This document shows, in pieces, positions 3,390-64,000 of a DNA stretch of 64,000 nucleotides. The stretch is from positions 1 to 64,000 of IMG/VR virus record IMGVR_UViG_3300021087_000857, one strand, 5' to 3'. Origin of the DNA: a virus. How positions within the stretch are numbered: position 1 is the stretch's first letter; each line of letters begins with the position of its first letter. Both the position numbers and the translations under genes were made by a program. Under the pieces are notes generated by a model. That model was not told the DNA's origin. It made no database searches and was given only the letters and a program-made list of their open reading frames with translations.

Positions 3390-4667
3390 ATGAATGGTTC
3401 TGATTCATTAATATACCATAAATGGAATAAGCAAGGTAAATTAGAAAACAATTTATGCAAGCATCCATTTACAGGGTTTTATATAGGACCAACAGGTAAT
3501 ATAGTTCTTTGTTGTATGGGACAGGATCTCCCCTTGGCACATATTGATAATGTAGATGATTTGGAATTATTCTATAACGATTCCGTAATGGAAAAATTTA
3601 GAAAAGGACTAGGACAAGGAAAATACTCAATAATGCCACCTTGTAATACTTGCTATCAAATGGAACTACAAGATTTAAACCCATTTAAAACTTCAATGGG
3701 CAATACTTTTAAATTTAAAAACTTTGATGATGATTGGAAGGCTTGGCAGATGAACGATCATAGGCCAATGAGATATTTAGAATATACATTGAGCAATATA
3801 TGTAACGCCGATTGTGCCACATGCAACAGCGAATGGTCTAGTAAATGGCAAGAACTAGATAGAAAGTTTAATAGATCAGTTACTCCACTTCAAAAGGTTG
3901 CAGATAAAAATATTGCAAAGATAGAAAAAGTTTTATACGGGTTAGAACATTTAATGATTAAAGGTGGCGAACCTTTCGCTGATATTAGAAATATAAGAAT
4001 ACTACAAAAGTTAATTGAAGTTAATCCTAATTGCCAAGTACATATAGTAAGTAACTTTCATGCAATAACTCCCGAAGCAATGGATATAATAGCAAACCTA
4101 CCTAACGTAAACTTTATAGCTAGTATAGACGCAGTTACTTCTGAGACATATAAATGGATTAGAGGAGGCAACTTTGAAAAAACAATTGCTAATATGAAAA
4201 CCGTTAGCAAATTAACAAATAATAAAATATCAGTAAACGTTACTATTTCTCTATATAACTATTTTCTACTAGATAAAATTAGAAAGTTCTTTGCTGAACA
4301 ACAACTGGAAGGATATTTTAAGAATATAAATTTTAGTAGTATTGCACGAGAGCCTCATCATACAATTGGATTATTGCCAGAGCAACTGTATAATAAACAA
4401 CAAGATAAGTTAAAAAAACACTTTGCTGATGATAATAATCAACTTGAGTTCAATGAACTCAACTGTAATATTGTTAATACAAGTGCAATATATTTAGATT
4501 ATGAGAAAATACTAAAACCTTCTTATAATAGTGATACACCAATTGAAGAAAGAGAAAAATTAATGAAAGATTTGTTTTTTCGTACTTTAGACCAAATGAA
4601 CGAGCATAGAGGGTTTGATCTATGTGATTATGTTCCAGAATTAAAAGAATGGCGAATAAACACTTGA
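3390..4667 (+). CDS. radical SAM protein with N-terminal SPASM/twitch domain
   Basis: CNADCATC, GGEPF; N-terminal CKHPF...LCC...CNTC. Confidence 0.9.
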   Translation: MNGSDSLIYHKWNKQGKLENNLCKHPFTGFYIGPTGNIVLCCMGQDLPLAHIDNVDDLELFYNDSVMEKFRKGLGQGKYSIMPPCNTCYQMELQDLNPFKTSMGNTFKFKNFDDDWKAWQMNDHRPMRYLEYTLSNICNADCATCNSEWSSKWQELDRKFNRSVTPLQKVADKNIAKIEKVLYGLEHLMIKGGEPFADIRNIRILQKLIEVNPNCQVHIVSNFHAITPEAMDIIANLPNVNFIASIDAVTSETYKWIRGGNFEKTIANMKTVSKLTNNKISVNVTISLYNYFLLDKIRKFFAEQQLEGYFKNINFSSIAREPHHTIGLLPEQLYNKQQDKLKKHFADDNNQLEFNELNCNIVNTSAIYLDYEKILKPSYNSDTPIEEREKLMKDLFFRTLDQMNEHRGFDLCDYVPELKEWRINT

Positions 4668-4692
4668 CAACAGTCTACAAGTACACTATAAT
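4664..4692 (+). promoter_or_regulatory. sigma70-type promoter
   Basis: TTGACA-17 nt-TATAAT, perfect consensus; followed by hairpin TCTGCTA-ctaa-TAGCAGA (4701-4718). Confidence 0.85.
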
Positions 4693-4733
4693 AATACTAA
4701 TCTGCTACTAATAGCAGAGTAAAGGAGCAATAA

Positions 4734-4868
4734 ATGGGATATTTTATTCTCGGGATACTAATAGGTTGGCTTGTACCAAGACCTAAATTAATAGGTAAGG
4801 CAGAAGCAGCAATATGGAATCCAATTAAACAAAAGATGCCAAAGAGCATAACAAAGCACTTTGGGTAA
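4734..4868 (+). CDS. small membrane-anchored protein, 44 aa
   Basis: AAGGAG SD; MGYFILGILIGWLVPRPK...; missed by track. Confidence 0.7.
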   Translation: MGYFILGILIGWLVPRPKLIGKAEAAIWNPIKQKMPKSITKHFG

Positions 4869-4880
4869 GAAAAGGAAATA

Positions 4881-13673: not shown

Positions 13674-13686
13674 TAAAATTAGATAC

Positions 13687-13824: not shown

Positions 13825-14529
13825 ATGTTAGATGTTTTTATGTTAACATTCGGCGAACCCGAAGCAGATGACAATTTTGAAATACTAAAATTAAAAGCCC
13901 CACATGCCAAACGCATTGATAATGTACAAGGATTACTGCAAGCACACCAGGCCGCAGCAGAAGAATCACGCACAGGTTATTTTTATGTATGTGATGCTGA
14001 CGCAGTAATACAAGAAAACTTTGCATTTAAGTTTGAGCCTAGTGATAGACGAGAAACATATCCAGGTGTAAAAGAAACAGAATGTGTGTTTACTTATCGT
14101 AGTCATAATCCTATTAATGATTTGATATACGGATATGGTGGACTTAAATTGTTTCCTAAAAAGAATTTACTAGCAGTAACAGAATTTAAAGTAGATATGA
14201 CTACAAGCATTGGTGCAAAGTTTGTACCTAAGTTTGAGATTGCAAACACTACTGCATTCAATACAGATCCATTTAACACATGGCGTAGTGGATTTAGAGA
14301 ATGTACTAAGTTAGCAAGTAATATTATTGATCACAACAAACAAGTTGATGATGCATATAGATTAGAAGTATGGTGTACACGTGGCGAAAACAGACGCTAT
14401 GGTGATTATGCAATACTAGGCGCTCAACAAGGCAGAGACTTTGGAACGCACTATAAAGGCAATACAGAAGCCCTACGCAAGATAAACGATTGGGAATGGT
14501 TAAAGGAGACATTTAATGAAGCACTCTGA
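13825..14529 (+). CDS. GT-A-like glycosyltransferase
   Basis: DVFMLTFGEP start, FYVCDADAVI (DxD), YGYGGLKLFP, WRSGFRECTKL. Confidence 0.55.
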   Translation: MLDVFMLTFGEPEADDNFEILKLKAPHAKRIDNVQGLLQAHQAAAEESRTGYFYVCDADAVIQENFAFKFEPSDRRETYPGVKETECVFTYRSHNPINDLIYGYGGLKLFPKKNLLAVTEFKVDMTTSIGAKFVPKFEIANTTAFNTDPFNTWRSGFRECTKLASNIIDHNKQVDDAYRLEVWCTRGENRRYGDYAILGAQQGRDFGTHYKGNTEALRKINDWEWLKETFNEAL

Positions 14530-15463
14530 TTTTCAAAAAGAATACCATTGGATGAACGGACTAAGTGAATACTTTAAGTTCAATGGACAAGAAGAACGAT
14601 ATGACCAGATTCACAAAGCATTATACCACAACAACTGGTATCGCAAGCGTGATATTATAGTTGAATTATGTGGTAGGATTAACAGCAATCCACATCATGT
14701 TAAGTCGTGGATGAATCTGATGTTGCATGAGCATCTACCAGATGTTGATATAAAAGCACAGTTAGTTGCAACACTTATTCGTAAGCATATGAGAGAAGAT
14801 AAATTTATAGCAAACGTATGTAAGTTTATTAATTATTGGTCAGGAGAAGATGGCGAAGCTGCCGACATGCCGGACATGAATGACTTTCTCAGTAGAGGTC
14901 AAGTCAAAAGTAAATTATGGATGGTAAGTGAGTTAGCTAAAGTAGTAGAAGGAAATTTAGGCAACGTAGCATTCTATGGCGGCTGGTATAACTTTATGGC
15001 GTACTTTTTATTCTCACAGTTTGAAGTTGACAAAGTATATAGTTTAGATGTTGACAGTAAAGTAATAGATCCAAGTAAACGACTTTACCCAAAACAAGTT
15101 GAACAAGAAAGATTTTTACCAAAGACTGTAAATGTATCTAAAATTAAATGGAACAACAATATTGCTACTGTTCCTACTAACCAAACCGACGGAGAAGATC
15201 CTGGAGAGTATTGGGAGTTAGATAAAATTGATATGATAATAAACACAAGTTGTGAACACATGAATAACGAATGGTTTGATAACTTACCAGACGGTACTCT
15301 CGTTGTGTTACAAACAAATGATTACTTTAGTAATCCACAACATAGTAATTGTTGTAAAGATTTAGAAGAAGCCAAAAATAAATATTCTATGCAAAGTGTA
15401 ATGTATGAAGGTGAGTTAGATACCTCTCTATATAATAGATTTATGCTAATTGGCATAAAGTAA
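14516..15463 (+). CDS. class I SAM-dependent methyltransferase-like protein
   Basis: VAFYGGWY glycine loop, SLDVD acidic strand, IINTSCEH. Confidence 0.6.
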   Translation: MKHSDFQKEYHWMNGLSEYFKFNGQEERYDQIHKALYHNNWYRKRDIIVELCGRINSNPHHVKSWMNLMLHEHLPDVDIKAQLVATLIRKHMREDKFIANVCKFINYWSGEDGEAADMPDMNDFLSRGQVKSKLWMVSELAKVVEGNLGNVAFYGGWYNFMAYFLFSQFEVDKVYSLDVDSKVIDPSKRLYPKQVEQERFLPKTVNVSKIKWNNNIATVPTNQTDGEDPGEYWELDKIDMIINTSCEHMNNEWFDNLPDGTLVVLQTNDYFSNPQHSNCCKDLEEAKNKYSMQSVMYEGELDTSLYNRFMLIGIK

Positions 15464-15717: not shown

Positions 15718-15960
15718 ATGCCAGCAGTAATAAAGTTTTATACAGACGAATATACAAACAATAAAGATATGTTTGCTACATATGATGCTATTGGAAATAT
15801 AGCATCCTTATTGAGAGCTGAAGGTTTTGTATATGCTGAAGATGTTAGACTAGCAGAAGTATATTATAAAGAACAAAATGGTAGGCAAATAATAGCATTT
15901 GAATTTGTAGACGAACGCAAAGCAATGTTATTAAAGTTAAAAGGAATTAATAATGGATAA
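15718..15960 (+). CDS. small hypothetical protein (F..D...AMLxKL family)
   Basis: FEFVDERKAMLLKL; tandem paralog of the previous gene. Confidence 0.7.
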   Translation: MPAVIKFYTDEYTNNKDMFATYDAIGNIASLLRAEGFVYAEDVRLAEVYYKEQNGRQIIAFEFVDERKAMLLKLKGINNG

Positions 15961-16198
15961 AGAATTATGGGACGTAATACTTGATGGCTTTTCATTAAGA
16001 GAATTACAAAAAGAGGCAGCTAAAGCAATTAGTACAATGCCTGCAGATAATAATAGTATTCATAAATTTAATAAACAAGCACATCATAATAGCCAATTAT
16101 GGTACAGAGCAGTTATTATTCATTACTGTGAAGAACATGGAGGATTTCCTAGTGAAATTGGACCTGGCAAAGATGTAAAATTAATAATGGAGGATTAG
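15953..16198 (+). CDS. hypothetical protein
   Basis: AAGGA SD, coupled ORF. Confidence 0.7.
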   Translation: MDKELWDVILDGFSLRELQKEAAKAISTMPADNNSIHKFNKQAHHNSQLWYRAVIIHYCEEHGGFPSEIGPGKDVKLIMED

Positions 16199-17238: not shown

Positions 17239-17591
17239 TGGAATTATTATTAACTAACGTAATTTATGTTGGGTATAGATTATTAGTTACCGCACATATA
17301 GTAAAGTTTTTTAACAAATATATGTTTTACTCGGCTGCAGTTTTAATAGCAGCTCAAGTGAGTTTTTTATATGACGGCGGAATATTTGCTTGGTTCTTTC
17401 AAGCACAAGCATTACCTTCAATGGACGAGCTTATACAAGCCAACGTATTATACACACTTAGAGTAGGAATAGCATGGGCATTTATATATTGGCTATGGCA
17501 GATAAGAAAACTTAATTATTATCTAGCAGTTTTTATTGGAGCAGAAGCAACCTTTATAGTTGACTATTTTATATTTGATGGAGTATTTTAA
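17238..17591 (+). CDS. multi-pass membrane protein
   Basis: About four hydrophobic segments; TAATG coupling. Confidence 0.7.
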   Translation: MELLLTNVIYVGYRLLVTAHIVKFFNKYMFYSAAVLIAAQVSFLYDGGIFAWFFQAQALPSMDELIQANVLYTLRVGIAWAFIYWLWQIRKLNYYLAVFIGAEATFIVDYFIFDGVF

Positions 17592-18685
17592 TGTATGACT
17601 ACAAACAAATAAACGAAGTACATTTAGAAGTTACACAACGTTGTAATGCAAGTTGTCCTATGTGCGACCGTAATGAGAATGGCGGAGCAGTTAATCAACA
17701 TATCAAAAACAACTTACAAGAACTAACATTAGATGATTGCATAGATATATTCCCACACGATTTTATTGCACAACTAAAAACAATGTATATGTGTGGTAAC
17801 TTAGGCGATCCAATTAGTGCTAGAGATACATTAGAAATATTCCAATGGTTCCGCGATTGCAATCCCGACATGTGGTTAAGCATGAACACAAACGCAGGTG
17901 CAAGAGATCCACAGTGGTGGGCCGAGGTTGCTAAAGTAATTGGTCGCAATGGTTGTGTTATCTTTAGTGTAGATGGATTAGAGAATACAAATCATTTATA
18001 TAGACAAGGTGTGCAATGGGATAAAGTAGAACGCAACATGAAAGCATTTATTAATGCAGGTGGCAGAGCTAGATGGGACTATTTAATCTTTGAACATAGT
18101 GAGTGTGATGTAGAACGTGCAGAACAGTTGGCCAAAGAGTGGGGTGTTGAACGCTTTATGAAAAAGAAAACTGGACGCTTTATTAATACAAACAGTGAGA
18201 AAAAAGAAACACACCAAGCAAAGAATAGAAAAGGTGCTGACATGCAACAACTTGCTAAACCTAAAAAAGCAGAGCATCAGAACTTAGCATTATTAAAACA
18301 AGAAGAAATTGAAAAGACATATGGTAGTATGATGGACTACTACAATCAAGCCACAGTAAAATGTAAAGTAGCAGGTAAAGATACTAAGAGTATTTTTATT
18401 ACCGCAGAAGGATTAGTTATGCCTTGTTGTTGGACTGCTGGTCGTATGTACAAATGGTGGCACAGTGATCCTAAGGTAGAACAAATATGGGACTTCATAG
18501 ATGCAGCCGGTGGCAAGGATGGAATTAGTGCTAAAGTAAATGGTATTAAAGGTGTGTTCGCTAGTGGCATTATGAAAGACATACAACGCAGTTGGGCATT
18601 CAATAGTATCAAAGAAGGCAAACTAGGAGTATGTGCCCAGAAGTGTGGTACAGAATTTGATCCATACGCAGAGCAATTTAAATAA
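17591..18685 (+). CDS. radical SAM protein with C-terminal SPASM/twitch domain
   Basis: CNASCPMC, CGNLGDP, FSVDGL; C-terminal KC...MPCC...CAQKCG. Confidence 0.9.
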   Translation: MYDYKQINEVHLEVTQRCNASCPMCDRNENGGAVNQHIKNNLQELTLDDCIDIFPHDFIAQLKTMYMCGNLGDPISARDTLEIFQWFRDCNPDMWLSMNTNAGARDPQWWAEVAKVIGRNGCVIFSVDGLENTNHLYRQGVQWDKVERNMKAFINAGGRARWDYLIFEHSECDVERAEQLAKEWGVERFMKKKTGRFINTNSEKKETHQAKNRKGADMQQLAKPKKAEHQNLALLKQEEIEKTYGSMMDYYNQATVKCKVAGKDTKSIFITAEGLVMPCCWTAGRMYKWWHSDPKVEQIWDFIDAAGGKDGISAKVNGIKGVFASGIMKDIQRSWAFNSIKEGKLGVCAQKCGTEFDPYAEQFK

Positions 18686-19045: not shown

Positions 19046-20194
19046 ATGAGTAATAAAAGACCAGCCTGTTATGCCCCATGGATAACAACATATGAGTACC
19101 CACAAAAAATTGTTCCTTGTTGCGAATGGAAACATAACGGTGGAAGATATATAGGAACAGAAGAACATATGTCTTTGGATGATCGATTTAATCATCCAAC
19201 AATGAAAGACATAAAAGAAGAAATGATGTCAGGTATTCTTCCTCCTGAATGTAAAAATTGTGTTAAAATGGAAGAAAATACTAATCAAGTGTCTCTTAGG
19301 CAACAATATAATGGAACAGTCAAAAAAACAGAAAGACTTACTGACTATAAGTTTAATGAAGATGAATTTAAATTAATTAACATGGATTACAGAGAAAGTA
19401 ACTTATGTAATTTTAGTTGTATGATGTGTGGTTATCCTCTAAGTAGTGTACATGCTCAGATAGCCGGAAAGTATGGCAAGACAGGTATTAAGAAAAATCC
19501 TCATAACTTACAAATGTATCTAGATAGACTAGATGAAGTTCGATTAATTCAGTGCTTGGGTGGTGAACCTTTGCTAACAGAATCAATGTGGACTACAATA
19601 AAAGAAGTAAAACGCAGAGGTCTTGAAGGACAAATAAATTTAAGTATTGTAACAAATGGTAGCTTATTACACAGACATGATGATGAGCTTTTAGAATTGA
19701 TAGAGGGATTTAAAGACGTCATGATTGCAGTAAGCATTGATTGTGTTGGTGTTCAACACGATTACTGGCGATCTTCAAACTCTTGGGAAACAGTTAAAAC
19801 TAATGTAGACAAGATATACAAGTGGAGTGAAGGTGGAGAGAGCAACAAAGTCTTTTGTACAAGAACTGCAATTGGATGGCCAAATGCATATGCAGCCAAA
19901 TATGTATTTGATATGTTTAAAGATTGGGATATGCAAAGGAGATGGAACTTAATCACTGGACCTATAGGATTATCATTACCTATGCTACCACAAGAAGAGT
20001 TAGAAAAATTAGCAGAACACTGGAAAGATTATTCAGATGTATCAGAAATGTTTGCTAACACTGTTAGTTCTCCTGATGTATTTCAAATGCAACAACAACG
20101 AAACCAGATAGAAAATTTAGAAAAACTTAGAGATATTAAATTTAAAGATGCATTCCCAGAAATGGCACACATCTACAATAAAGCAAGTATTTAG
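19046..20194 (+). CDS. radical SAM protein with N-terminal SPASM/twitch domain
   Basis: CYAPW...PCC...CKNC; CNFSCMMC; GGEPLL; VTNGS. Confidence 0.9.
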   Translation: MSNKRPACYAPWITTYEYPQKIVPCCEWKHNGGRYIGTEEHMSLDDRFNHPTMKDIKEEMMSGILPPECKNCVKMEENTNQVSLRQQYNGTVKKTERLTDYKFNEDEFKLINMDYRESNLCNFSCMMCGYPLSSVHAQIAGKYGKTGIKKNPHNLQMYLDRLDEVRLIQCLGGEPLLTESMWTTIKEVKRRGLEGQINLSIVTNGSLLHRHDDELLELIEGFKDVMIAVSIDCVGVQHDYWRSSNSWETVKTNVDKIYKWSEGGESNKVFCTRTAIGWPNAYAAKYVFDMFKDWDMQRRWNLITGPIGLSLPMLPQEELEKLAEHWKDYSDVSEMFANTVSSPDVFQMQQQRNQIENLEKLRDIKFKDAFPEMAHIYNKASI

Positions 20195-35545: not shown

Positions 35546-36178
35546 ATGTTATTAACTAACCCACTAGAAATAGAACTCACAACAAAATGCACACTTGGGT
35601 GTCCTGCTTGTCCGCGAAACAATCCCAAAGAGAAAAAAGAAAATTGGGATGTAGGACACATGAATACAGATATTGCTAAAAGTTTAGCAAACTCTACAGT
35701 AGAACGTTCGTATCTTTTTGTAGGATGTTATGGTGATCCAATATATCACCCAGACTTTATAGATATAGTAAAGTATTATATAGATAGAAATAAAAGTCTT
35801 ACAATTCATACCAATGGGAGTTTTAAAAAACAATCATGGTGGGATAAACTAGCAAGTCTTAATTGGACATATAAGCAAAACTTTACTTTTAGTGTTGATG
35901 GATTAAAAGATACAAATCACATATATAGGATTCGTGCAGATTGGGAATCTATTATGCGAGGAATGAAAACAATAGGATCGTTACCATCAGATCGTAAGCC
36001 TCGTTTAGAATGGAAAATGTTAGTTTTTCCATATAACAAACATCAAGTACCAGAAGCAAGAAAACTAGCACAAGAAATAGGTATTGATACGTTTACACCA
36101 GTTAAAAGTGAAAGAGATATCAATCAATACAGAGTAGAAAACAATGAAATATATAGGTGGCCAGATGATAAAGCCTAG
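35546..36178 (+). CDS. radical SAM core domain (SPASM encoded separately)
   Basis: CTLGCPAC, GCYGDP, HTNGS, FSVDGL. Confidence 0.9.
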   Translation: MLLTNPLEIELTTKCTLGCPACPRNNPKEKKENWDVGHMNTDIAKSLANSTVERSYLFVGCYGDPIYHPDFIDIVKYYIDRNKSLTIHTNGSFKKQSWWDKLASLNWTYKQNFTFSVDGLKDTNHIYRIRADWESIMRGMKTIGSLPSDRKPRLEWKMLVFPYNKHQVPEARKLAQEIGIDTFTPVKSERDINQYRVENNEIYRWPDDKA

Positions 36179-36527
36179 ATGTTTATTATATAATATGCCA
36201 ATATTTTTATCTGCTGATAATAGATTAAAGCCGTGTTGTTTTTTAAATCCAGTTGAGCAATGGAACGATTTTATTAATTGGGGCAAACAAAACGGATTAA
36301 ATGTGGAAGAAGACTTAGACATAACAAAACATGACGTAGAAACAATACTAAAAAGCCCAACATGGTTAGCAGTACTAGATGGATTTAAAACAGGTAATGC
36401 TCCACATGAATGTCATGTATCATGTGGTCCTGATAGTTACTCAAGTACATCACAAACAGCTAAACATAGTGATTATGAAGAAAATCCTGATAGTAGTGGA
36501 TTATCTTCGGCTTATAGAGAGGAATAA
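36165..36527 (+). CDS. stand-alone SPASM/twitch domain
   Basis: AGGTGG SD, ATG 36165; KPRC...KPCC...ECHVSCG. Confidence 0.75.
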   Translation: MIKPRCLLYNMPIFLSADNRLKPCCFLNPVEQWNDFINWGKQNGLNVEEDLDITKHDVETILKSPTWLAVLDGFKTGNAPHECHVSCGPDSYSSTSQTAKHSDYEENPDSSGLSSAYREE

Positions 36528-38747: not shown

Positions 38748-39647
38748 ATGGATAAACTTAGATATAGTGAAGCATTCTATTCAGTGCAAGGTGAAGGTAA
38801 ATTTGTAGGAGTACCTAGTGTATTCTTACGTACTTTTGGTTGTAACTTTAGATGCATGAACTTTGGGCTTGATAGGAGTGAACCTAGTAGAGCAGAAAAA
38901 CATGCACAAGGCAATCGTTATAATGATGAGGTATTAGATCTTATCAATAATGATGTACACAAAACAACTAAAGAATTTACAGACTTACCTATTATACACA
39001 CAGGGTGTGATACTTATGCAAGTATCTATCCAGAATTTAAAGAATATAATAAACAAAGAACTATAGACGAAGTAGTAGAACACTTACTAAGTCTTACTCC
39101 TGAAGGTAAATGGACTTGTGATAATGGACAAGATATTCATCTTATACTTACAGGCGGCGAACCGTTGTTAGCGTGGCAACGTTTGTACGTTGATTTATTT
39201 GAACATCCACGTATGAGGGATTTACAAAATGTTACAGTTGAAACAAACACTACGCAACACTTACACAAAGATTTATTCAAATATCTCGACAACAATGACA
39301 GAATTACAGTTACATGGAGTTGTTCGCCAAAGCTCTCCGTTAGTGGAGAATCTTGGGACGATGCTATTAAGCCTAGTGTGGCTAGGGAGTATAGTACTGT
39401 TGATGGTAGCGATATCTATCTTAAATTTGTTGTTGCTGACAGGACTGATATTGACGAGGCTGGTAGAGCTGTTGATGAATATCGTAAAGCGGGTTTGGAC
39501 TGCCCTGTGTACCTTATGCCGTTGGGCGGCAGGTCAGAAGAGTATAATCTCAATGTTCAAGAAGTTGCGAACATCTGTATGGAAAAGGGTTGGAGATTCA
39601 CCCCAAGACTCCACATCAGCCTATTCGGAAACGCATGGGGAACCTAA
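38748..39647 (+). CDS. queE: 7-carboxy-7-deazaguanine synthase (radical SAM) with an insertion in the Cys motif
   Basis: SEAFYSVQGEG, VFLRTFGCNFRC...GCDT, LTGGEP, VETN, SPKL, RLHI. Confidence 0.9.
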   Translation: MDKLRYSEAFYSVQGEGKFVGVPSVFLRTFGCNFRCMNFGLDRSEPSRAEKHAQGNRYNDEVLDLINNDVHKTTKEFTDLPIIHTGCDTYASIYPEFKEYNKQRTIDEVVEHLLSLTPEGKWTCDNGQDIHLILTGGEPLLAWQRLYVDLFEHPRMRDLQNVTVETNTTQHLHKDLFKYLDNNDRITVTWSCSPKLSVSGESWDDAIKPSVAREYSTVDGSDIYLKFVVADRTDIDEAGRAVDEYRKAGLDCPVYLMPLGGRSEEYNLNVQEVANICMEKGWRFTPRLHISLFGNAWGT

Positions 39648-39693: not shown

Positions 39694-40791
39694 ATGAAGC
39701 AAGGCAATTATATTTTTACAAGCGAAAGTGTAAGTAAAGGACACCCAGATAAGGTGTCAGATCAAATTAGTGATGCACTAGTTGATGCAGGATTAAAAAA
39801 CGGCGACGAGACAACTCGTGTAGCAGTTGAAACACTTGTAACCACTAACCATGTAACGTTAGCGGGTGAGGTAAAGAACTTTAATGTAAGCAAGGACGAA
39901 GTCAAACAAATCGTTCGTGACAAAGTTAAAGAGATTGGATACGAACAGGATGGATTCCATTGGGATAAGTTAAACATCTATAACGAGATTCATTCGCAAT
40001 CAGGTGATATTGGGTTGGGAACAGATAGTTTTGGTGCAGGTGATCAAGGTATTATGTTTGGTTACGCATGTACAGATAACGATGCAATGCTACCAGCACC
40101 TATTCATTACTCGCATGAAATTTTAAAGTCGTTAGACAAAGCAAGAGAAAGTGGATACGAATTTCTACTACCAGATGCTAAGTCACAAGTAAGTGTTCAG
40201 TACGAAGGTGGAAAGCCAACACGTATTGATCAAATTGTTGTATCACATCAACACAAAGACGGATTTCAACATAGCATTAAGGCACCTATAAAAGATGCCG
40301 CTAACGAAGTATTAGGAGATTTAATTGATAAAGAAACTGTATGGCATATTAATCCTACTGGTAATTTTGTTATTGGTGGACCCGATGGAGACACAGGTCT
40401 CACAGGCAGAAAGATCATTGTTGATACTTATGGTGGTTTTGCTCCCCATGGCGGCGGCGCATTTAGTGGCAAGGATCCTACCAAAGTAGATCGCAGTGCG
40501 GCTTATATGGCACGATGGTTAGCAAAGAATGTTGTAGCAGATAACATGGCTGACTGGTGTAGTATTCAACTTAGTTATGCTATTGGTGTTAAAGAACCTA
40601 CTAGTATCTATATAGATTCAAATGGACACAATAGAAGTATTCAGCAATTTATCCAAAACAACATTGACTTAACACCAAAAGGAATCATTGACAAGTTTGG
40701 GTTATTCAAGTATAATAAGTATAGTGAAAATTGTGTTTACGGACACTTTGGCGACAAAGATGTACCGTGGGAAAGTATAGGATGGAAATGA
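39694..40791 (+). CDS. metK: S-adenosylmethionine synthetase
   Basis: FTSESVSKGHPDK, GAGDQG, GLTGRKIIVDTYGG, GGGAFSGKDPTKVDRS. Confidence 0.97.
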   Translation: MKQGNYIFTSESVSKGHPDKVSDQISDALVDAGLKNGDETTRVAVETLVTTNHVTLAGEVKNFNVSKDEVKQIVRDKVKEIGYEQDGFHWDKLNIYNEIHSQSGDIGLGTDSFGAGDQGIMFGYACTDNDAMLPAPIHYSHEILKSLDKARESGYEFLLPDAKSQVSVQYEGGKPTRIDQIVVSHQHKDGFQHSIKAPIKDAANEVLGDLIDKETVWHINPTGNFVIGGPDGDTGLTGRKIIVDTYGGFAPHGGGAFSGKDPTKVDRSAAYMARWLAKNVVADNMADWCSIQLSYAIGVKEPTSIYIDSNGHNRSIQQFIQNNIDLTPKGIIDKFGLFKYNKYSENCVYGHFGDKDVPWESIGWK

Positions 40792-56357: not shown

Positions 56358-56432
56358 GAACATACAGTATATTGATAAAATTAATACTGAACGTTATCTT
56401 GCGATTGGACAAAATAAAATATAGAGAATAAT

Positions 56433-57860
56433 ATGTCAGATAGTAAATTACCAAGCGATACTTTTTGTATACTTCCGTGGATACATTTAAGTACTAGACC
56501 AGATGGAAGTATGAGAGTATGTTGTACTGCTAACGCATCAAGTGTAGGAGCAACAAATGATAAAGCACACGGTGGAAGAGTAGGTATTGTTAAAACAGAA
56601 GATGGCAAGCCTGCTAACCTAAACAACAGTGATCTTAACAGTAGTTGGAATAACAGCTATATGCGAAGTGTTAGACAAATGATGCTTAAAGGCGATAAGC
56701 CAGCAAGTTGTTTAAAATGCTACAAAGAAGAAGATGCAGGACACAGATCAAAGCGTCAATGGGAAACAGACTATTGGATGCGTGATGGTATTGATGTTGA
56801 CGAACTAGTAGCTCAAACATACGAAGATGGATCAACAGATAGTAAACTACGTTATATTGATATTCGTATGGGAACTAAATGTCAATTAGGTTGTGTTATG
56901 TGTAGCCCACATGATAGTTCAGGTTGGGTGAAAGACTGGAACAAGTTATATCCAAATATTACAAATGAATCTCTAAAAGAAACTATGAATTGGGATTCTA
57001 AAGGTAAAACGTTTGGTGCTAGTTATAATTGGCACAAAGACAATCCAGTATTTTGGGATCAGTTTTATGCACAAATTCCATACATTAGACAGTTATACTT
57101 TGCAGGCGGCGAAAGTACAGTTATTGAAGAACATTATAGTATTTTATCTAAAGTTATTGAAATGGGGTATGCACATCAAATTGAAGTACGTTATAATTCA
57201 AACGGAATTGAACTACCAGATAGACTATTAGAACTATGGACACATTTCCAAAAAGTACGTTTCCATTATAGTATTGACAGTATTGGTGTAATGAATGATT
57301 ATATTCGTTACCCAAGTGAATGGGACCATCAACTTAAAATGTTTGAACGTTTAGATAAAGAAACATCTAACAATGTAGAAGTTACAATTGCATGTGCCGT
57401 TAACGCTCTTAACATTCATTATATTCCAGACTTCCTTAAATGGAAACTTCAGGATAGCGGACTAAAGAAAACAAATATGTGGCCATTTGGTGCAGGCGGT
57501 ATTAACTATCACTTTGTATACTGGCCAGGACATTTGAATGTTAAAGTACTACCAGATGAATTCTTAGATAAGACTGAAGCTAAGTATGAAGAATTTATTG
57601 AATGGTGGAAAGAAAATTGGGAACTAGGTGTTCCAAGTTGGCATAAAGGTAAAGTAACCAAAGAACAATGGCTAGATGCGAGTTATGGAATTAAACGTTT
57701 ACGTGGTATGATTAGTTTTGCTCGCAGTGAAGATTGGAGTAGACGCTTACCAGAATTTAGAGAATATATTAATAAACTAGATGAGTTACGTGGAACTGAT
57801 TTCCGCAATACATTTCCAGAAATGGCATACTTACTAGATGAACCGGAGAATGATAAATGA
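56433..57860 (+). CDS. radical SAM protein with N-terminal twitch domain
   Basis: CILPW...VCC...CLKCY; CQLGCVMC; FAGGE; YNSNG. Confidence 0.92.
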   Translation: MSDSKLPSDTFCILPWIHLSTRPDGSMRVCCTANASSVGATNDKAHGGRVGIVKTEDGKPANLNNSDLNSSWNNSYMRSVRQMMLKGDKPASCLKCYKEEDAGHRSKRQWETDYWMRDGIDVDELVAQTYEDGSTDSKLRYIDIRMGTKCQLGCVMCSPHDSSGWVKDWNKLYPNITNESLKETMNWDSKGKTFGASYNWHKDNPVFWDQFYAQIPYIRQLYFAGGESTVIEEHYSILSKVIEMGYAHQIEVRYNSNGIELPDRLLELWTHFQKVRFHYSIDSIGVMNDYIRYPSEWDHQLKMFERLDKETSNNVEVTIACAVNALNIHYIPDFLKWKLQDSGLKKTNMWPFGAGGINYHFVYWPGHLNVKVLPDEFLDKTEAKYEEFIEWWKENWELGVPSWHKGKVTKEQWLDASYGIKRLRGMISFARSEDWSRRLPEFREYINKLDELRGTDFRNTFPEMAYLLDEPENDK

Positions 57861-58432
57861 AATATTTATTAGTCGCACTTGAAAATGAAGTGCCAAATAT
57901 CGATTTACCCGATGATTATACACTAATGATTACAGGTGTAGGTAAAGTAAATGCTACTGTAATGGCTACTATTGCCGCTAGACAACCAGACTGTGAATGT
58001 ATTATTAACTACGGAACAGCAGGAACTTTTAATCCTAAACTAGTTGGTAAACTACACAGAATTGGAATAGTAAAACAACGCGATATGGATGCAAGACCAC
58101 AAGCACCATTAGGAACTACTCCATACGAAGATACAAAATTCAGCAGTGATTTGCAACTTTATAAAGGAAGTAAATTTACATTAAGCACAGGCGATAACTT
58201 TGTAAAAGCCAACCCCGAAATGCAAAGTGACTTTGTAGACATGGAAGGGTATGCTATTGCAAAAGTGGCAGGTATGTTTAATAAGCCATGTATGATGTTA
58301 AAATATGCAAGCGACTTAGCTGACGATAAAGCACCAGAAGAATGGGAAAAGAATCAAGCCAAAGGCAAAGATATGTTCCTAAAATGGCTAGATGATTTAG
58401 AAAAGAATATCCAAGAAATAAACGATGAGTAA
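57857..58432 (+). CDS. mtnN: 5'-methylthioadenosine/SAH/5'-deoxyadenosine nucleosidase
   Basis: ALENE, TGVGKVNA, INYGTAG, STGDNF, VDMEGYAIAKV, KYASDLAD. Confidence 0.85.
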   Translation: MKYLLVALENEVPNIDLPDDYTLMITGVGKVNATVMATIAARQPDCECIINYGTAGTFNPKLVGKLHRIGIVKQRDMDARPQAPLGTTPYEDTKFSSDLQLYKGSKFTLSTGDNFVKANPEMQSDFVDMEGYAIAKVAGMFNKPCMMLKYASDLADDKAPEEWEKNQAKGKDMFLKWLDDLEKNIQEINDE

Positions 58433-59684
58433 TTCGGGCTTTTGTGCATTACCATTTGTTCAATATAGTACTTACAACGGAGGACGTTTTAGACTTTGTT
58501 GTATGGCTAAAGAACCTAAAGAACTAGTCAATCAAGAAGAACTAGGAATTGATGGCACTTGGAATCACAATTATATAAAAGACGTAAGACGCAGAATGAC
58601 TGCTGGTGAGAAATTATCAGAGTGTATTGAATGTCATCATTTAGAACGTAACGGAATAATGAGCTCACGCCAATGGGAAAATAAAGTGTGGGCAGACGTA
58701 ATAGATGATGTAGTAGCAGACGCATCAGCTAATGATTGGGAGATTGACCAGCCTCTACAATTTGATTTTAGACTTGGTAACTTATGTAATTTGCAGTGTC
58801 AAATGTGCAACAAAGAAGCATCTCACTTAGTGAGTGTGGAAAGAGCCACAATGGTACAAAGCGGACTCGGAGCGAACCATCCTGATTGGGACGGCAATAT
58901 TGCAAACAAAAAACAAGCATTACTTCAACCTGGAATAGAGTGGGAGAGCTTTGAAAGAATGTTACCATATGCTCGCAAAATAAAACTAATAGGTGGCGAG
59001 CCTACAGTTGCTCAAGACATGTTTAAATTGTTAGACATTGCAACTGCAAGTGGTCATGCAGAACATATAGAATTAAGTTTTTATACAAACATCACTAACA
59101 TGCAAGATAAATGGTTAGACCAACTATCTAAGTTTGAGAAAGTGATTGTTAACTGTTCATTGGAAGGAATGGAAGATATGAATGATTATCTTAGGCCTCC
59201 AAGTAAGTGGGCAAGTGTATGGAAGAACTTTGATAAGTTAGTTAAGTTCTCAGATACAAAAGAAGGTAAACGTATAAAGGTACGAGTTACTACAGTAAAC
59301 CAAATAACCAATGCATTGCATACTGCTACATTTTGGAAGTTTATGCATGATTATCAGATGACTAGTAATAGAGGCATTGGTATGAGTACTAACCAATTAG
59401 TAGAGCCAGCATACTATAGTATGGCACATGCTCCTGAATGGTTGAAAGAAGAACAACGTGAACAGATTTTGGAATTTCTCAAAAGCATTGGCAACAGTCC
59501 ACATTTTGAGCAATACGAAGAACCTCTTATGGAACTTGTTAATTTTAGTTTGGATCCTGAGCATAAGTATGATGCTGACATCATGCGCCAGTATGTCAAG
59601 ATCACCGAAAACTACGACAGATTCAGAGGACACGACATTATTCAAGTGTCGCCCGAATTTAGAAGAATTAAAAGAGACCTCTGA
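58425..59684 (+). CDS. radical SAM protein with N-terminal twitch domain
   Basis: CALPF...LCC...CIECH; CNLQCQMC; IGGEP. Confidence 0.92.
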   Translation: MSNSGFCALPFVQYSTYNGGRFRLCCMAKEPKELVNQEELGIDGTWNHNYIKDVRRRMTAGEKLSECIECHHLERNGIMSSRQWENKVWADVIDDVVADASANDWEIDQPLQFDFRLGNLCNLQCQMCNKEASHLVSVERATMVQSGLGANHPDWDGNIANKKQALLQPGIEWESFERMLPYARKIKLIGGEPTVAQDMFKLLDIATASGHAEHIELSFYTNITNMQDKWLDQLSKFEKVIVNCSLEGMEDMNDYLRPPSKWASVWKNFDKLVKFSDTKEGKRIKVRVTTVNQITNALHTATFWKFMHDYQMTSNRGIGMSTNQLVEPAYYSMAHAPEWLKEEQREQILEFLKSIGNSPHFEQYEEPLMELVNFSLDPEHKYDADIMRQYVKITENYDRFRGHDIIQVSPEFRRIKRDL

Positions 59685-59738
59685 TTTAACTAAAGCAGAA
59701 ACCTATCATCGATGGGATTGTAAAGTAACTGTAGACTT

Positions 59739-60569
59739 TTAAAACTTTTTAATACGTTCTGCCATACATAGCTCAGGCTTGAGCAAACTTTCATTTAATA
59801 TATCAGCTTCAAAGCATTGTAACTTTGTGCCAAATACAATTTGGTGAGTAATCCATTGTGCATTAAAGAACCAAATATCACCTGGATCAAAAGTAATATA
59901 ATGTAATGGGTGGTGAAACTGATCCCATTTTTCTTCATTCCATACACATCTATCACGCATTCCAGTAATAAATGTATGTATGTTGTTTTTATCTAGTTCA
60001 CCTAAGTTAAACTTATCTTTGTACATGTTATACATTTGTTGTAAGTCTGGACCACACGATAATACTCTAGGACGCTTTTTATCTAATTGAACAAACATAC
60101 GTATCTGTTGTTCTAGTCCAGTGTGTTGTTCATCTAGTTCGTCCAAGTGTAGTTTATTTTCTACTAGTGTATTATATCTATGACTAAGCATACGTTCACT
60201 TGTTTTGTAATGTGGGAATAACATATCAAATACTTCGTTCCATCCATTGTTAGCTTGTTTGTGTTTTTGATGAAATACATTAATTTGCTCGTCATTCCAA
60301 CCACGTTCTATATGCATACGTGATCTATTTTTAATATGACTGTTATACCAAGGCATAATCCATTTGTTATCTTTAATAGTCCAGTCTGGTAAGTCGTCAT
60401 AGTAATCATAATCTAATTGTGGTATAGTTAGATTTTTAATAACCACCGGCCAGCCACTTTCAAATGCTTCGTATAGTTTAAAATTGTCTTTTAGGTCGTG
60501 TTTATTAGCGTCGAAAACATTGACAATGAAGTCGTTTCCTGCTATAATATCTTTAGCGATACGGGTCAT
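59739..60569 (-). CDS. Kdo-hydroxylase (KdoO)-like 2OG-Fe(II) oxygenase
   Basis: LHLD (HxD), IRMFVQL..RPRV, FDPGDIWFF...THQIVFG; GGAG SD before ATG 60569; only convincing minus-strand gene. Confidence 0.6.
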   Translation of the reverse strand: MTRIAKDIIAGNDFIVNVFDANKHDLKDNFKLYEAFESGWPVVIKNLTIPQLDYDYYDDLPDWTIKDNKWIMPWYNSHIKNRSRMHIERGWNDEQINVFHQKHKQANNGWNEVFDMLFPHYKTSERMLSHRYNTLVENKLHLDELDEQHTGLEQQIRMFVQLDKKRPRVLSCGPDLQQMYNMYKDKFNLGELDKNNIHTFITGMRDRCVWNEEKWDQFHHPLHYITFDPGDIWFFNAQWITHQIVFGTKLQCFEADILNESLLKPELCMAERIKKF

Positions 60570-60598
60570 GTTGTATAAAACTCCATTTGTGTGTATAG

Positions 60599-60619
60599 AT
60601 AAATACATATATATTTATG
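60599..60619. promoter_or_regulatory. inverted pair of late-promoter-like ATAAATA boxes between divergent genes
   Basis: ATAAATA-catatata-TTTAT (ATAAATA also reads on the minus strand). Confidence 0.5.
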
Positions 60620-60674
60620 CAAGTAAAAATCCAAGTTCAACGCATATTGAACAAACATCATATGAGAATAAAAA

Positions 60675-61760
60675 ATGACAAAATCAGTTAATGTATGGAG
60701 CGAATTTCAGCCCCTAAAAAGAGTAGTGCTAGGAGCACCGTTTCCACCTGAAACATTTGATTGGCACGAGGACGAAGAAACACGCAATGTAATGCGTCAA
60801 ATCTTTAAAGAAACAGCCGAGGACATAGCAGTGCTGGAGGGAATATTAAAGGACAGAGGTATTGAAGTAGTACGTCCTAAAAATATATTTACAATCACAG
60901 GTGAAGAACAAATTAAATTACCATGGATGCATTGTGGGTTTCCTAACCACCCATTAATGCCACGTGATACACTTATGCCGTATGGCAATAGTATATTTGA
61001 ATGTTTTACAGGTAGCGATAATCGTTACTTTGAGAATCTCGCATATTACGATCATTGTAGTAAATGGTTTAGTGAAGGTGCAGATTGGGTTAGTATGCCA
61101 GGAGTATTAGTAGAAAGTGGTAAAAAATATGACCACTTTGTAGATAATCATCGACTGCTTTATCATGCGGCTAACATGATAAAGTGTGGACGCCACGTTT
61201 TGTTTAGCCAACCCTATGAGGGAGACAATAAACGAGGCAGAGGTACGGAGCTGGGCCGTGAATGGATTCGTAGAGAAATAAAACTACGTTATCCAGATAC
61301 AAAGTTTTTGGACATTCCAGTAGGAGGACATATCGATGGTAAAATAGCATTGCTAAAACCTGGTGTGCTAATGACCTGGAATGCAAATTGGGTTCCTAAA
61401 GAAATGGAAGGTTGGCACATTATTGAAGTAGATGATGATTTTGACATGCCAGAAGATTTCCAACAAACTCGTAAGAAAAGATTCCACAAAGAATATGTAA
61501 GCAAGTGGTTAGAGCATTGGGTAGGTTGTCCAGACGAAAGTGTGTTTGATGTTAACGTACTATCACTAGATGAAAAGACGGTAATTTGTACAGGTAAAAA
61601 TGAACAAGCATTTGCTGAAATGGAAGCACATGGCATTGAACCAATATACTGGAACTTTAGACATCAGTATTTTTGGGATGGTGGCATACATTGTTTAACA
61701 AGTGATATTGTTAGAGAAGGTGGGCAGGAAGATTATATAACTAACAAAAGGTACTATTAA
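60675..61760 (+). CDS. amidinotransferase (glycine/inosamine-phosphate amidinotransferase family)
   Basis: WSEFQPLKRVVLG, MPRD, GHIDG, FDVNVLSLD, GGIHCLTSD. Confidence 0.9.
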   Translation: MTKSVNVWSEFQPLKRVVLGAPFPPETFDWHEDEETRNVMRQIFKETAEDIAVLEGILKDRGIEVVRPKNIFTITGEEQIKLPWMHCGFPNHPLMPRDTLMPYGNSIFECFTGSDNRYFENLAYYDHCSKWFSEGADWVSMPGVLVESGKKYDHFVDNHRLLYHAANMIKCGRHVLFSQPYEGDNKRGRGTELGREWIRREIKLRYPDTKFLDIPVGGHIDGKIALLKPGVLMTWNANWVPKEMEGWHIIEVDDDFDMPEDFQQTRKKRFHKEYVSKWLEHWVGCPDESVFDVNVLSLDEKTVICTGKNEQAFAEMEAHGIEPIYWNFRHQYFWDGGIHCLTSDIVREGGQEDYITNKRYY

Positions 61761-62809
61761 TGAGTTGGTACAAGAACCTACATAAATTACAACTTGACCC
61801 AACAAGTCATTGTAATGCAAGATGCGGTGCTTGTGCTAGAAATATATACGGTGGTGAAACTAGACACGACTTGGAATTAAAACATTTTGACTTAGAGTTA
61901 TGGAAAAGAATAGCAATCGAAGACACTAAAGAGTGCTACATAAATCATTTAAGTCTAAATGGAAATTGGGGCGATGCTTTAATGCACCCAGATATAATAG
62001 AAATAATTGAAATTTGGAATACATATCATCCAGAAAGTGAAATGGCAATAGCAACAAATGGAAGCCTACGTAGTACAGAGTTTTGGAAAAAGTTAGCCAA
62101 CGTACTAAGAAACACTCCTCGACATAGTCTTGAATTTTCAATGGATGGAATGGAAGATACACATCACATTTATAGAAGAAAAACATCACATTCAAAGTTA
62201 GTAGATAATATTAAAACTTTTGTAGATGCAGGTGGAACTGCAAACATATATATGACTTTATTCGAACACAACAAACACCAAATTAAAGAAGTAGCAAACT
62301 TATCTAAAGAATTAGGTGCTGATGGATTTTATATAAGGCATAGTCATCGTAGTAAGATGAAAATTATAGACGGTGAAGAACGATACGATATAGAAGGTTA
62401 TTTTCCAAAAATAATAAAAGGCTCTTTTACTTTTCCAAAAAATAAAAAAATAAATAGTGATGCAAGAGATAGTAAAATACACATACAAAATAATGAAAAA
62501 ATTAAACCAAATACAACAAGTAAATGTCCTTGGAAACAACAACACAAAGTACAAATTGATCCATGGGGAATAATATGGCCTTGTTGTTATGTAAGTAAGT
62601 ATGGTGGTGGTGGGTCAATGACAGGTTTTAATATGGACGAAATTTTTTCACCAGGCAATGATAATATTATTAATAATGTATTTGAACAAAATGATGTAAA
62701 CAAGTATACCTTAAAAGAAATATTAGAAAATAAATGGTTTAATACAACAGTAGATAATGCAATAGCAAAGTCTGAATGGAATATTTGCAATGAAACTTGC
62801 GGAATATAA
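61760..62809 (+). CDS. radical SAM protein with C-terminal SPASM/twitch domain
   Basis: CNARCGAC, NGNWGD, ATNGS; KCPW...WPCC...CNETCG. Confidence 0.92.
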   Translation: MSWYKNLHKLQLDPTSHCNARCGACARNIYGGETRHDLELKHFDLELWKRIAIEDTKECYINHLSLNGNWGDALMHPDIIEIIEIWNTYHPESEMAIATNGSLRSTEFWKKLANVLRNTPRHSLEFSMDGMEDTHHIYRRKTSHSKLVDNIKTFVDAGGTANIYMTLFEHNKHQIKEVANLSKELGADGFYIRHSHRSKMKIIDGEERYDIEGYFPKIIKGSFTFPKNKKINSDARDSKIHIQNNEKIKPNTTSKCPWKQQHKVQIDPWGIIWPCCYVSKYGGGGSMTGFNMDEIFSPGNDNIINNVFEQNDVNKYTLKEILENKWFNTTVDNAIAKSEWNICNETCGI

Positions 62810-62818
62810 GGAATAACA

Positions 62819-63919
62819 ATGAATTGGTATAGACAGATACATAAATTACAAATAGATATAACAAGTCATTGTAATGCTAGATGTGGTGCTTGTATAAGAA
62901 ATATAAATGGAGGTGCAACTCATCCAGGTTTAAAACTAACCCATTTTGATGTAGATGTTTGGAAACGTATGGCTACCGAAGACACTAGAGGTTGGTGGGT
63001 TAGGCAGCTAACACTAAATGGAAATTGGGGCGATCCAATGATGCATCCTCATTTAGTAGAAATGTTAGAAATATGGATTACTGCTCACCCGGAAACTTTT
63101 ATATCTATTGCAACAAATGGAAGTATGCGTAGCACTAAGTTTTGGTCAGACCTTGCTACAATATTACGTAAAGGATCTCATCACAAAGTTGATTTTGCAG
63201 TAGATGGAATGGAAGACACGCATCATATATACAGACGAAAAACTGTGTTTTCTAAACTAAAAGAAAACATAAAAGCATTTACAGATGCAAAAGGACAAGC
63301 AATTGCAGTAATGACAATGTTTGAACATAACAAACATCAAATAGAAGAAGTAAAAGAATTGGCAAGAGAAGTAGGTTGCAAACACTTTATTGCAAGAAGA
63401 AGTCATAGTGATCATATGCTTATCGAAGACGGTGACGAACAATACGAAATAAAAGGTTGGTATCCAACTGGAAATGGCGAGCATGTAATTGATAACGATA
63501 CTCCGGAACTTGAACAAGACTTTCCCGAAAACGAACATCCACTAAGTGTAAATAGAGACAGAATATGGATGAGAGCTAATGAACGTTTTGAAGAATTAAA
63601 TGATAATCATATACCAAGTAAATGTCCTTGGAAAGATGAAGGGGAAGTACAAATAGACCCATGGGGTGTTGTATGGCCTTGTTGTCATGTAAGTTTATAT
63701 GGCGGTGCTGGAGCATCAGAAAATATGTCTATAAAATTAAACTTTAATGAAGAAGCTGAACAAACTAATTTTATCGAAGAAGGAAAAGAATCAAACAGTT
63801 TGCATAATAGATCGTTAAAAGATATATTAAATAATCAATGGTATAATGATACACTTAATCATGCTATAAAAAATGCAGATTATGATGTGTGCAGACGTAG
63901 TTGTGGGATATGTAAATAA
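62819..63919 (+). CDS. radical SAM protein with C-terminal SPASM/twitch domain (tandem paralog)
   Basis: CNARCGAC, NGNWGDP; KCPW...WPCC...CRRSCG. Confidence 0.92.
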   Translation: MNWYRQIHKLQIDITSHCNARCGACIRNINGGATHPGLKLTHFDVDVWKRMATEDTRGWWVRQLTLNGNWGDPMMHPHLVEMLEIWITAHPETFISIATNGSMRSTKFWSDLATILRKGSHHKVDFAVDGMEDTHHIYRRKTVFSKLKENIKAFTDAKGQAIAVMTMFEHNKHQIEEVKELAREVGCKHFIARRSHSDHMLIEDGDEQYEIKGWYPTGNGEHVIDNDTPELEQDFPENEHPLSVNRDRIWMRANERFEELNDNHIPSKCPWKDEGEVQIDPWGVVWPCCHVSLYGGAGASENMSIKLNFNEEAEQTNFIEEGKESNSLHNRSLKDILNNQWYNDTLNHAIKNADYDVCRRSCGICK

Positions 63920-64000
63920 TGTACGTTAATCCAATGTTAAATGATACACGCTATCCAACGTGCTTGGCACCTTGGAATGCACTCACTATTAAATGGGGCG
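63919..64000 (+). CDS. 5' fragment of a probable further twitch-domain radical SAM protein
   Basis: TAATG coupling; MYVNPMLNDTRYPTCLAPWNALTIKWG (CxxPW start); truncated by window edge. Confidence 0.6.
   Translation, partial: MYVNPMLNDTRYPTCLAPWNALTIKWG

Follow-up and report, generated by a model that had tools for sequence, protein, structure and literature searches.

The window analysed here, the first 64 kb (64,000 nucleotides) of the 110,270-bp IMG/VR virus record IMGVR_UViG_3300021087_000857 (32% complete according to CheckV), carries a large part of a battery of radical S-adenosylmethionine (SAM) enzymes; in the whole record, 19 genes with the CxxxCxxC cluster motif make up 19.6% of the DNA. 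Gene content, families, folds, synteny and distribution of the battery are established. It has a conserved core, formed by the radical SAM genes 56433, 17591 and 79778 (genes are named by their lowest coordinate, and the record shares the numbering of the window) together with 13825, 14516 and 15953; the remaining radical SAM genes are swappable cassettes. Because the same core sits among family 2 glycosyltransferase (GT2) and GT-C genes in Bdellovibrionota chromosomes, we suggest that the battery carries out radical tailoring of a sugar or glycan decoration, a reading to which we would give an even chance of being right.

The radical SAM genes of the window and the record

In a six-frame scan of open reading frames (ORFs) across the window, the CxxxCxxC motif was found in exactly eight plus-strand ORFs: 3390, 17591, 19046, 35546, 56433, 58425, 61760 and 62819. 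A ninth occurrence, in the antisense ORF 31273-31671, was dismissed as a chance match. All eight match Pfam Radical_SAM (PF04055), with E-values from 2e-12 to 8e-6; six lie above its gathering score of 29.5 bits, while 17591 (26.6 bits) and 56433 (28.1 bits) fall just below, and yet 56433 scores 418 bits against the family NF033640. An earlier note on this DNA had counted eight complete CxxxCxxC enzymes besides QueE and the start of a probable ninth. For the window this is exact: a QueE-like gene is also present, and the ORF that starts at 63919 runs on to 65169 and belongs to NF033640 (252 bits). As a count of the array it was too low, the array extending beyond the window to the 19 genes given above.

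Thirteen genes of the record exceed the 170-bit cut-off of NF033640 (N_Twi_rSAM), with scores of 181-418 bits; four are complete in the window and nine lie beyond it. They share an N-terminal twitch domain with cysteine ligands, followed by the CxxxCxxC core. The family exists as a catalogue entry only, and in the literature that we searched no paper pairs "N-terminal twitch" or "N-terminal SPASM" with radical SAM; both the 13-fold expansion in one phage and the size of the family (at least 8,629 clusters at 50% identity and E<=1e-30 in a profile search) are previously undescribed. The member with the highest score in the window is the core gene 56433 (56433..57860, +). It is followed by 58425 (58425..59684, +; 293 bits), which is conserved in the subclade of close relatives, with orthologues of 71-94% identity at 20 viral loci and at 0 bacterial loci. 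Two accessory paralogues lie further upstream, 19046 (19046..20194, +; 215 bits) and 3390 (3390..4667, +; 195 bits, Radical_SAM 2.2e-12), the latter with a SPASM match at residues 23-89. The window ends within the next member (63919..64000, +), the sole one of the 13 paralogues to lack the CC pair of the twitch motif, so that its auxiliary cluster may be incomplete; its conservation in relatives is 62-97%.

Identities between the paralogues are 20-31%, and only the pair 61760/62819 reaches 49%, which rejects an origin by recent duplication. All 13 N-terminal-twitch paralogues keep CxxxCxxC, a GGE motif (G225, G226 and E227 are invariant) and the twitch cysteines; with catalytic motifs invariant, decay into pseudogenes was likewise rejected. 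Low mutual identity and kept catalytic motifs together indicate that these are old, maintained genes. Between 60675 and 81205, the array forms a run of 22 coupled, co-directional genes with a largest gap of 23 nt.

A conserved core and swappable cassettes

A relative of 56433 is encoded on 513 IMG/VR contigs. In the 80 loci that were fetched, up to 13 radical SAM genes occur within 21 kb, and the 20 large related phage records hold 6-25 such genes each. When 563 unique radical SAM proteins, taken from about 150 loci, were clustered at 45% identity, they fell into 194 clusters, 135 of them singletons (3390 among these). Of the radical SAM genes in this record, 56433, 17591 and 79778 are the only ones in clusters that phages share with bacteria; the cluster of 17591 draws its members from 28 viral and 24 bacterial loci. 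In distant relatives these three genes are found together with 13825, 14516 and 15953. The last of these (15953..16198, +) encodes an 81-aa protein with orthologues of 52-65% identity beside those of 14516 and 17591 in many phage loci, and one further orthologue on a 13-kb contig of phage-like DNA that was binned as Neisseriaceae (L084). In roughly half of the close relatives, the stretch from 56433 to 58425 is interrupted by additional radical SAM genes or other genes.

The core operon is preceded, at 13674-13824, by a terminator of the hairpin-plus-T-run type and then by a near-consensus sigma70 promoter (TTGACA, 17 nt, TATTAT), and a TTGACA-17-TATAAT promoter stands ahead of 20261 (20195-20260). 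These sigma70-like elements suggest early transcription by the host RNA polymerase. Sites for the T4 late promoter TATAAATA show no enrichment (3 on the plus strand), and none stands ahead of the arrays.

One twitch module in several arrangements

The earlier note had divided the enzymes into those with an N-terminal twitch domain and those with a C-terminal SPASM domain. The first group stands, as 3390, 19046, 56433 and 58425 all score above the NF033640 cut-off, while the label for the second proved loose. The SPASM domain (PF13186), which carries two auxiliary clusters, has a C-terminal motif of seven cysteines; 17591 and 61760 have five C-terminal cysteines and no Pfam SPASM match, and 62819 has six, with a marginal SPASM score of 21.9 bits against a cut-off of 21.5. 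The C-terminal domains of these three proteins are thus twitch-like and not full SPASM domains. In the core gene 17591 (17591..18685, +) the CxxxCxxC motif is at residue 18 and the C-terminal cysteines are arranged as C-x20-CC-x67-CxxxC; 61760 (61760..62809, +; Radical_SAM 4.3e-11) and 62819 (62819..63919, +; 1.2e-9) form the 49% identical pair mentioned above.

A hidden Markov model (HMM) built from the N-terminal twitch domain of the 13 paralogues finds two further proteins of the window. One is 36144 (36144..36527, +), a free-standing twitch domain (residues 12-91, E 5.6e-5; C-x17-CC...CxxxC) directly downstream of 35546 (35546..36178, +; Radical_SAM 2.9e-10), which has the radical SAM core alone; the other is the C-terminus of 62819 (residues 277-313, E 2e-4). 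One and the same twitch module therefore exists N-terminally fused, C-terminally fused and detached. The pairing of 35546 with the ORF behind it, noticed earlier, is a real split into two genes, the partner being 36144-36527 in another frame: the split recurs in at least five diverged phage loci, the downstream ORF in relatives encodes 96-113 aa, and one homologue from Bacteriovoracaceae is a fused protein of 389 aa.

The N-terminal twitch ligands conserved among the paralogues are C12, C30/C31, C93 and C96, and the first 70 positions of the 13-paralogue profile match the C-terminal twitch domain of BtrN (E 6e-6). BtrN, a twitch radical SAM enzyme, is the 2-deoxy-scyllo-inosamine dehydrogenase of butirosin synthesis. 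The two domains are homologous one-cluster twitch domains with the same C-x17/18-C ... CxxC spacing, and BtrN acts on a carbohydrate-like substrate, with a transamination as the next step. The difference lies in the layout: the twitch domain of BtrN is C-terminal and that of the phage family N-terminal, a permuted order, and the cores are of low identity. The core of the profile is nearest to TvgB, SkfB, BlsE, MoaA and viperin.

In the wider family, many of the library matches P0121-P0147 are proteins of 770-1,120 aa with two tandem N-terminal-twitch radical SAM units, and others among them carry unexplained extensions of 240-970 aa; a PDB sequence search with the fused protein P0134 returned nothing. 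Among the 150 best library representatives, there is no fusion of the N-terminal twitch domain to a domain of the 13825 or 14516 type.

In the PDB, the family profile has its best sequence matches in TvgB (8vpo, 6.5e-15) and SkfB (2.6e-14), which brings in a first alternative: a ribosomal peptide, or a protein of the virion or the host, would be cross-linked, epimerised or edited in some other way by the radical SAM enzymes, with the Asp/Asn hydroxylase acting on the same target. The Asp_Arg_Hydrox gene does lie inside the array, and small ORFs occur in or beside the clusters (15473, 15718, 15953, 68430, 68607 and 80948). Set against this, the PqqD-like recognition element of ribosomally made peptides with post-translational modifications (RiPPs; PF05402) has no match at E<=1 in the record, although some maturases work without this element; no repeated or Cys-rich precursor-like peptide was found; and more than three radical SAM genes are rare in RiPP clusters. 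Moreover, it is a GT-A fold and a methyltransferase that are conserved as partners, and glycosyltransferases abound in the bacterial context. Overall, modification of a peptide or protein seems to us improbable.

The core in Bdellovibrionota chromosomes

Orthologues of 56433 with about 60% identity are present in Bdellovibrionota chromosomes, including that of the isolate Bdellovibrio sp. HCB2-146 and closed chromosomes of 2-3 Mb. Bacterial neighbour genes were annotated from our own ORF calls; beside the 56433 orthologues they include orthologues of 13825, 14516, 17591 and 79778 as well as further N-terminal-twitch genes. The family occurs in 31 of the 151 Bdellovibrionota genomes sampled, and five genomes have 7-13 copies each. 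In Bdellovibrio sp. HCB2-146, the core trio lies among five GT2 genes, a GNAT gene, an FtsJ-like methyltransferase gene and genes for membrane proteins, and the locus also encodes a fibre of 1355 aa that has a Peptidase_S74 chaperone domain; in a Bacteriovoracaceae chromosome, a GT2 gene and a PMT_2 gene of the GT-C type lie beside the core.

In a tree with paralogues as its root, the phage sequences group as a single clade inside a grade of Bdellovibrionota sequences. This tentatively suggests a transfer from Bdellovibrionota-type bacteria into the phage lineage, the direction being tentative because the outgroup branches are very long. It had been proposed that the phage encodes a radical chemistry platform. 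Its size and its two architectures are borne out, but the platform is not specific to phages, as its core is common to Bdellovibrionota glycosylation loci; this sharing also narrows the substrate towards a sugar.

Putative sugar-related partners of the radical SAM enzymes

The two core partners were characterised by structure prediction. Gene 13825 (13825..14529, +) encodes a GT-A-fold protein resembling nucleotide-diphospho-sugar transferases; it has no Pfam or NCBIfam match, and its AlphaFold2 model (pLDDT 92) finds RmlT, SunS, WrtF and PBCV-1 A64R in Foldseek with probabilities up to 0.99. The aspartate D59 of its DAD motif is invariant in 29 homologues. The model reaches a Z of 11.6 to the glycosyltransferase B4GALNT1 (VIA), with nucleotidyltransferases of the same fold nearly as high and no Pfam glycosyltransferase match. 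The adjoining gene 14516 (14516..15463, +) encodes a protein with the fold of class I SAM-dependent methyltransferases (pLDDT 82; Foldseek matches to PsoF, TehB and halide methyltransferases with probability 1.00), and the two genes are kept side by side in phage and Bdellovibrionota loci. PDB sequence searches with the profiles of both proteins gave nothing, and a search of the ESM Atlas gave weak GT2 and methyltransferase leads at most. In four related and partly non-independent loci (L011-L014), a 521-aa protein with a 13825-like GT-A domain (57% identity) has as its immediate neighbours the nucleosidase and a radical SAM gene, in the stretch that separates the nucleosidase from the 58425 orthologue.

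The first gene of the 22-gene run, 60675 (60675..61760, +), encodes a pentein-fold amidinotransferase with PDB matches to HsvA (8.8e-24, residues 19-355), SxtG (2.9e-18) and StrB1 (3e-17); Cys340 in its GGIHC motif is the C-terminal catalytic cysteine. A homologue of 45% identity is found in a Bdellovibrionota locus, and a cyanophage homologue lies beside KdsA, KdsB and GT24 genes. The array also contains a weak match to pyridoxal phosphate (PLP) enzymes at 65162 and the Asp_Arg_Hydrox gene, which encodes an oxygenase of the Asp/Asn-hydroxylase type. PDB sequence searches returned nothing for 65162, 68878 and 70164 and a marginal match for 79778 (E 0.027); the best model matches of 76245 and 79778 are viperin, MoaA and enzymes of the QueE type. 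Other sugar genes of the window encode a GT-B protein, a GalE-like epimerase, part of a UDP-glucose dehydrogenase, a phosphomannomutase and a carbamoyltransferase of the TobZ/NodU family (126-1643). An APS-kinase-like P-loop protein is encoded at 36533-36964 (1.7e-12), and a conserved 234-aa protein just upstream of 56433 (55653-56357) has a motif, read by eye, that resembles those binding phosphoadenosine phosphosulfate (PAPS); the two might hint at a sulfation step.

Some of these genes could also serve a second alternative, namely the synthesis of a small molecule that stays unattached and is directed at the host or at competitors, for instance a compound resembling an aminocyclitol, an aminoglycoside or a guanidino sugar. 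The BtrN-type twitch domain, an amidinotransferase like StrB1, SxtG and HsvA, the PLP-enzyme match and the TobZ/NodU-type carbamoyltransferase all fit with such a product. A transferase-fold gene in the conserved core does not, and the GT2 and GT-C genes and the fibre protein of the bacterial loci point to attachment instead; neither an exporter nor a resistance gene was recognised in the array. We therefore consider a free compound quite unlikely.

The third alternative concerns nucleic acids: the battery might make modified nucleotides, or edit bases or sugars on the phage DNA, in connection with the FolE-QueD-QueE genes. The window does contain FolE, QueD, a phosphoribosyltransferase (PRTase) and MetK genes, and the QueE-like gene (38748..39647, +) follows the QueD/PTPS gene at 38301; this QueE-like protein matches TIGR03365 at positions 3-37 at its N-terminus (E 3e-7), has an atypical cluster motif with cysteines at 32, 36 and 87, and has no Pfam Radical_SAM match. 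The model matches of 76245 and 79778 point the same way. Phages of the CP220 type carry deazaguanine-modified DNA, and they have a smaller radical SAM/amidinotransferase module. On the other hand, both annotated Bdellovibrionota loci are flanked by GT2 and GT-C genes and not by deazaguanine genes, which in the phage lie 16-30 kb away from the arrays; the variation of the radical SAM cassettes is also far above that of any known DNA modification pathway. Hypermodification of nucleotides or DNA thus appears to us an improbable role for the battery.

The module of Campylobacter phage CP220, a cultured T4-like phage, is a close parallel: five radical SAM genes, an amidinotransferase gene homologous to 60675 (24% identity, 4e-15) and two GT-A genes for nucleotide-diphospho-sugar transferases lie there in a single co-directional run. 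It is much smaller than the present battery, and tblastn in CP220 found neither an N-terminal-twitch member nor an orthologue of the core trio. Among environmental genomes, a 183-kb T4-like genome has 12 radical SAM genes along with A-type carrier, paaD and grx genes (Nishimura 2017, PMC5332604), and radical SAM cassettes differ between close pelagimyophages, within a host recognition cluster rich in glycosyltransferases (Zaragoza-Solas 2020, PMC7029224); the phage described here is of a roughly 350-kb jumbo type and not a pelagimyophage. Both studies mention such cassettes in passing, without family assignment, core/cassette structure, Bdellovibrionota link or mechanism.

A proposed mechanism

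The sugar substrate, the types of reaction and the target of attachment in the following scheme are what we infer from these neighbourhoods and folds. In sugar or glycan tailoring, the CxxxCxxC cluster of each radical SAM enzyme would cleave SAM reductively, and the resulting 5'-deoxyadenosyl radical would abstract hydrogen at one of the sugar's carbons, in the manner of BtrN, BlsE, viperin and MoaA, with the twitch cluster dealing with the electron. The product step might be an oxidation, an epimerisation, a deoxygenation or a C-C or C-methyl change. Amino, amidino and methyl groups would then be added, and the transferase would join the product to a macromolecule. The very divergent N-terminal-twitch paralogues form a changeable set around the core, their genes interleaved with those for the amidinotransferase, the weakly PLP-enzyme-like protein, the Asp/Asn-hydroxylase-type oxygenase and other tailoring functions. 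Part of the cofactor load might be borne, in this subclade, by MetK, the nucleosidase, an Apt-like PRTase, Prs, Fe-S carriers and ferredoxin.

Several points weigh against this interpretation. Fold and neighbourhood do not fix a reaction, a product or an acceptor; MobA and IspD reach a Z of about 10 with the model of 13825, which could therefore be a nucleotidyltransferase; and Pfam GT2 is not found in the record's own 110 kb. The top structural relatives include TvgB and SkfB, which modify peptides, and the Asp/Asn hydroxylase family acts on proteins. The 7-deazaguanine pathway genes FolE, QueD and QueE in the window also leave some probability for nucleic-acid chemistry. Most of the related records are fragments. 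The RNA evidence consists of contigs that could stem from carried-over DNA: exact matches to the radical SAM genes are present in contigs from three marine metatranscriptome studies, with carry-over DNA as a possible source, and coverage of the array in them is about as even as that of neighbouring genes, which is no proof of transcription.

We further speculate, with considerable reservation, that the N-terminal-twitch paralogues may form a combinatorial glycan-editing toolkit. A fixed core would make a scaffold sugar, and interchangeable cassettes would each add a different radical edit; the cassettes would be exchanged among jumbo phages, having come originally from Bdellovibrio-type predators. 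Each lineage would thereby acquire a distinct sugar decoration, whether displayed, on DNA or on the host surface, for host recognition or evasion of defence.

What is known of radical SAM chemistry on sugars comes from a small number of enzymes, each studied by itself, while the NF033640 family, with at least 8,600 sequence clusters and a permuted domain order, has no characterised member and is common in ocean metagenomes. If tailoring of sugars is indeed its role, the islands hold a large and so far unused stock of new reactions that modify carbohydrates, and may add a new layer of diversity to phage surfaces or DNA. A culturable Bdellovibrio isolate and the smaller CP220 module offer experimental entry points.

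SAM supply, nucleosidase and iron-sulfur helpers

A further proposal, which found partial support, was that the array comes with a SAM economy of its own, based on metK and on a 5'-methylthioadenosine/S-adenosylhomocysteine (MTA/SAH) nucleosidase between two radical SAM genes. Both genes are as described. MetK (39694..40791, +) has all three S-AdoMet_synt domains (N 1.6e-32, M 2.9e-35, C 1.4e-57) and is encoded directly after queD-queE, 16 kb from the main array and outside it. The nucleosidase (57857..58432, +; PNP_UDP_1 5.6e-14) shares 4 nt with 56433 and 8 nt with 58425. With 191 aa against the roughly 230 aa of MtnN, it scores below the NCBIfam equivalog cut-offs (NF004168, 97.8 vs 129 bits; NF004079, 66.4 vs 169 bits), and its catalytic MEG and SD (Asp) motifs align with the MTA/SAH nucleosidase structures 6aym and 4pr3 (2.7e-9). 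Its role is probably clearance of 5'-deoxyadenosine. In 25 of the 27 close relatives it lies between the orthologues of 56433 and 58425; in one close relative it contains a stop codon.

Beyond the window, genes for Prs, ClpP, MazG, an A-type carrier, an Apt-like PRTase, NifU, a 7Fe ferredoxin, a DUF59/SufT-like protein and PepA surround one more N-terminal-twitch gene, so that genes of cofactor supply are confirmed to be present. Within this Fe-S support run, a 168-aa ORF on the minus strand (record 89216-89722, L002:8216-8722) has as its sole match a piece of the NTPase domain of the bacterial DNA_pol3_alpha family (7.4e-10).

What failed is the expected link between SAM supply and the number of radical SAM genes: across the 20 related records, MetK and the nucleosidase do not co-vary with radical SAM copy number (means of 15.2 radical SAM genes in records with them and 12.8 in records without, Mann-Whitney p=0.40). 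Each of the two genes is present in 11 of these records. Both are found in all ten records of the close subclade, while in the sister subclade MetK and the nucleosidase occur in one record of ten each, and in different ones (10/10 vs 1/10, Fisher p=1e-4). Neither gene was seen in sister-subclade fragments with 13-18 radical SAM genes, nor in the sole complete genome of the set (364 kb, 7 radical SAM genes); since most related records are fragments, such absences are provisional. MetK and the nucleosidase are thus a trait of the subclade and not obligatory for the radical SAM system, and as the trait is not a rule, the idea of a self-contained SAM supply matters less.

The source phage and further genes

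The source is an uncultured marine jumbo myophage with a genome of ~350 kb and a T4-type replication core. The record encodes a T4-type RNase H, a gp44-like clamp loader, ThyX and a family B polymerase, whose nearest cultured counterparts, 44-49% identical, belong to jumbo phages of 350-490 kb that include Atu_ph07, Yersinia fHe-Yen9-04 and Vibrio 2.275.O. Megablast with window positions 56000-64000 gave no match among cultured phages, and tblastn of 56433, 17591, 79778 and 10270 gave remote matches there or none. At least 14 metagenomes of marine or seawater origin, produced by many studies, contain near-identical DNA.

Several other genes of the window deserve mention. A conserved 289-aa protein is encoded on the opposite strand behind 58425 (59739..60608, -); its orthologues in close relatives are 63-88% identical, and it has no Pfam or NCBIfam match. 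A full-length TctA tricarboxylate transporter subunit at 6444-7886 (Pfam 5.6e-97) is unusual cargo for a phage. The Peptidase_S8 subtilase at 31096-33786 consists of two ORFs in the same frame, split by an in-frame TGA TAG pair at 32644-32649, the second ORF carrying on the C-terminal catalytic part. Finally, a 962-aa protein with 35 cysteines (10270-13158), which has no Pfam match and no tblastn match in cultured phages, is kept upstream of 13164 in several relatives.

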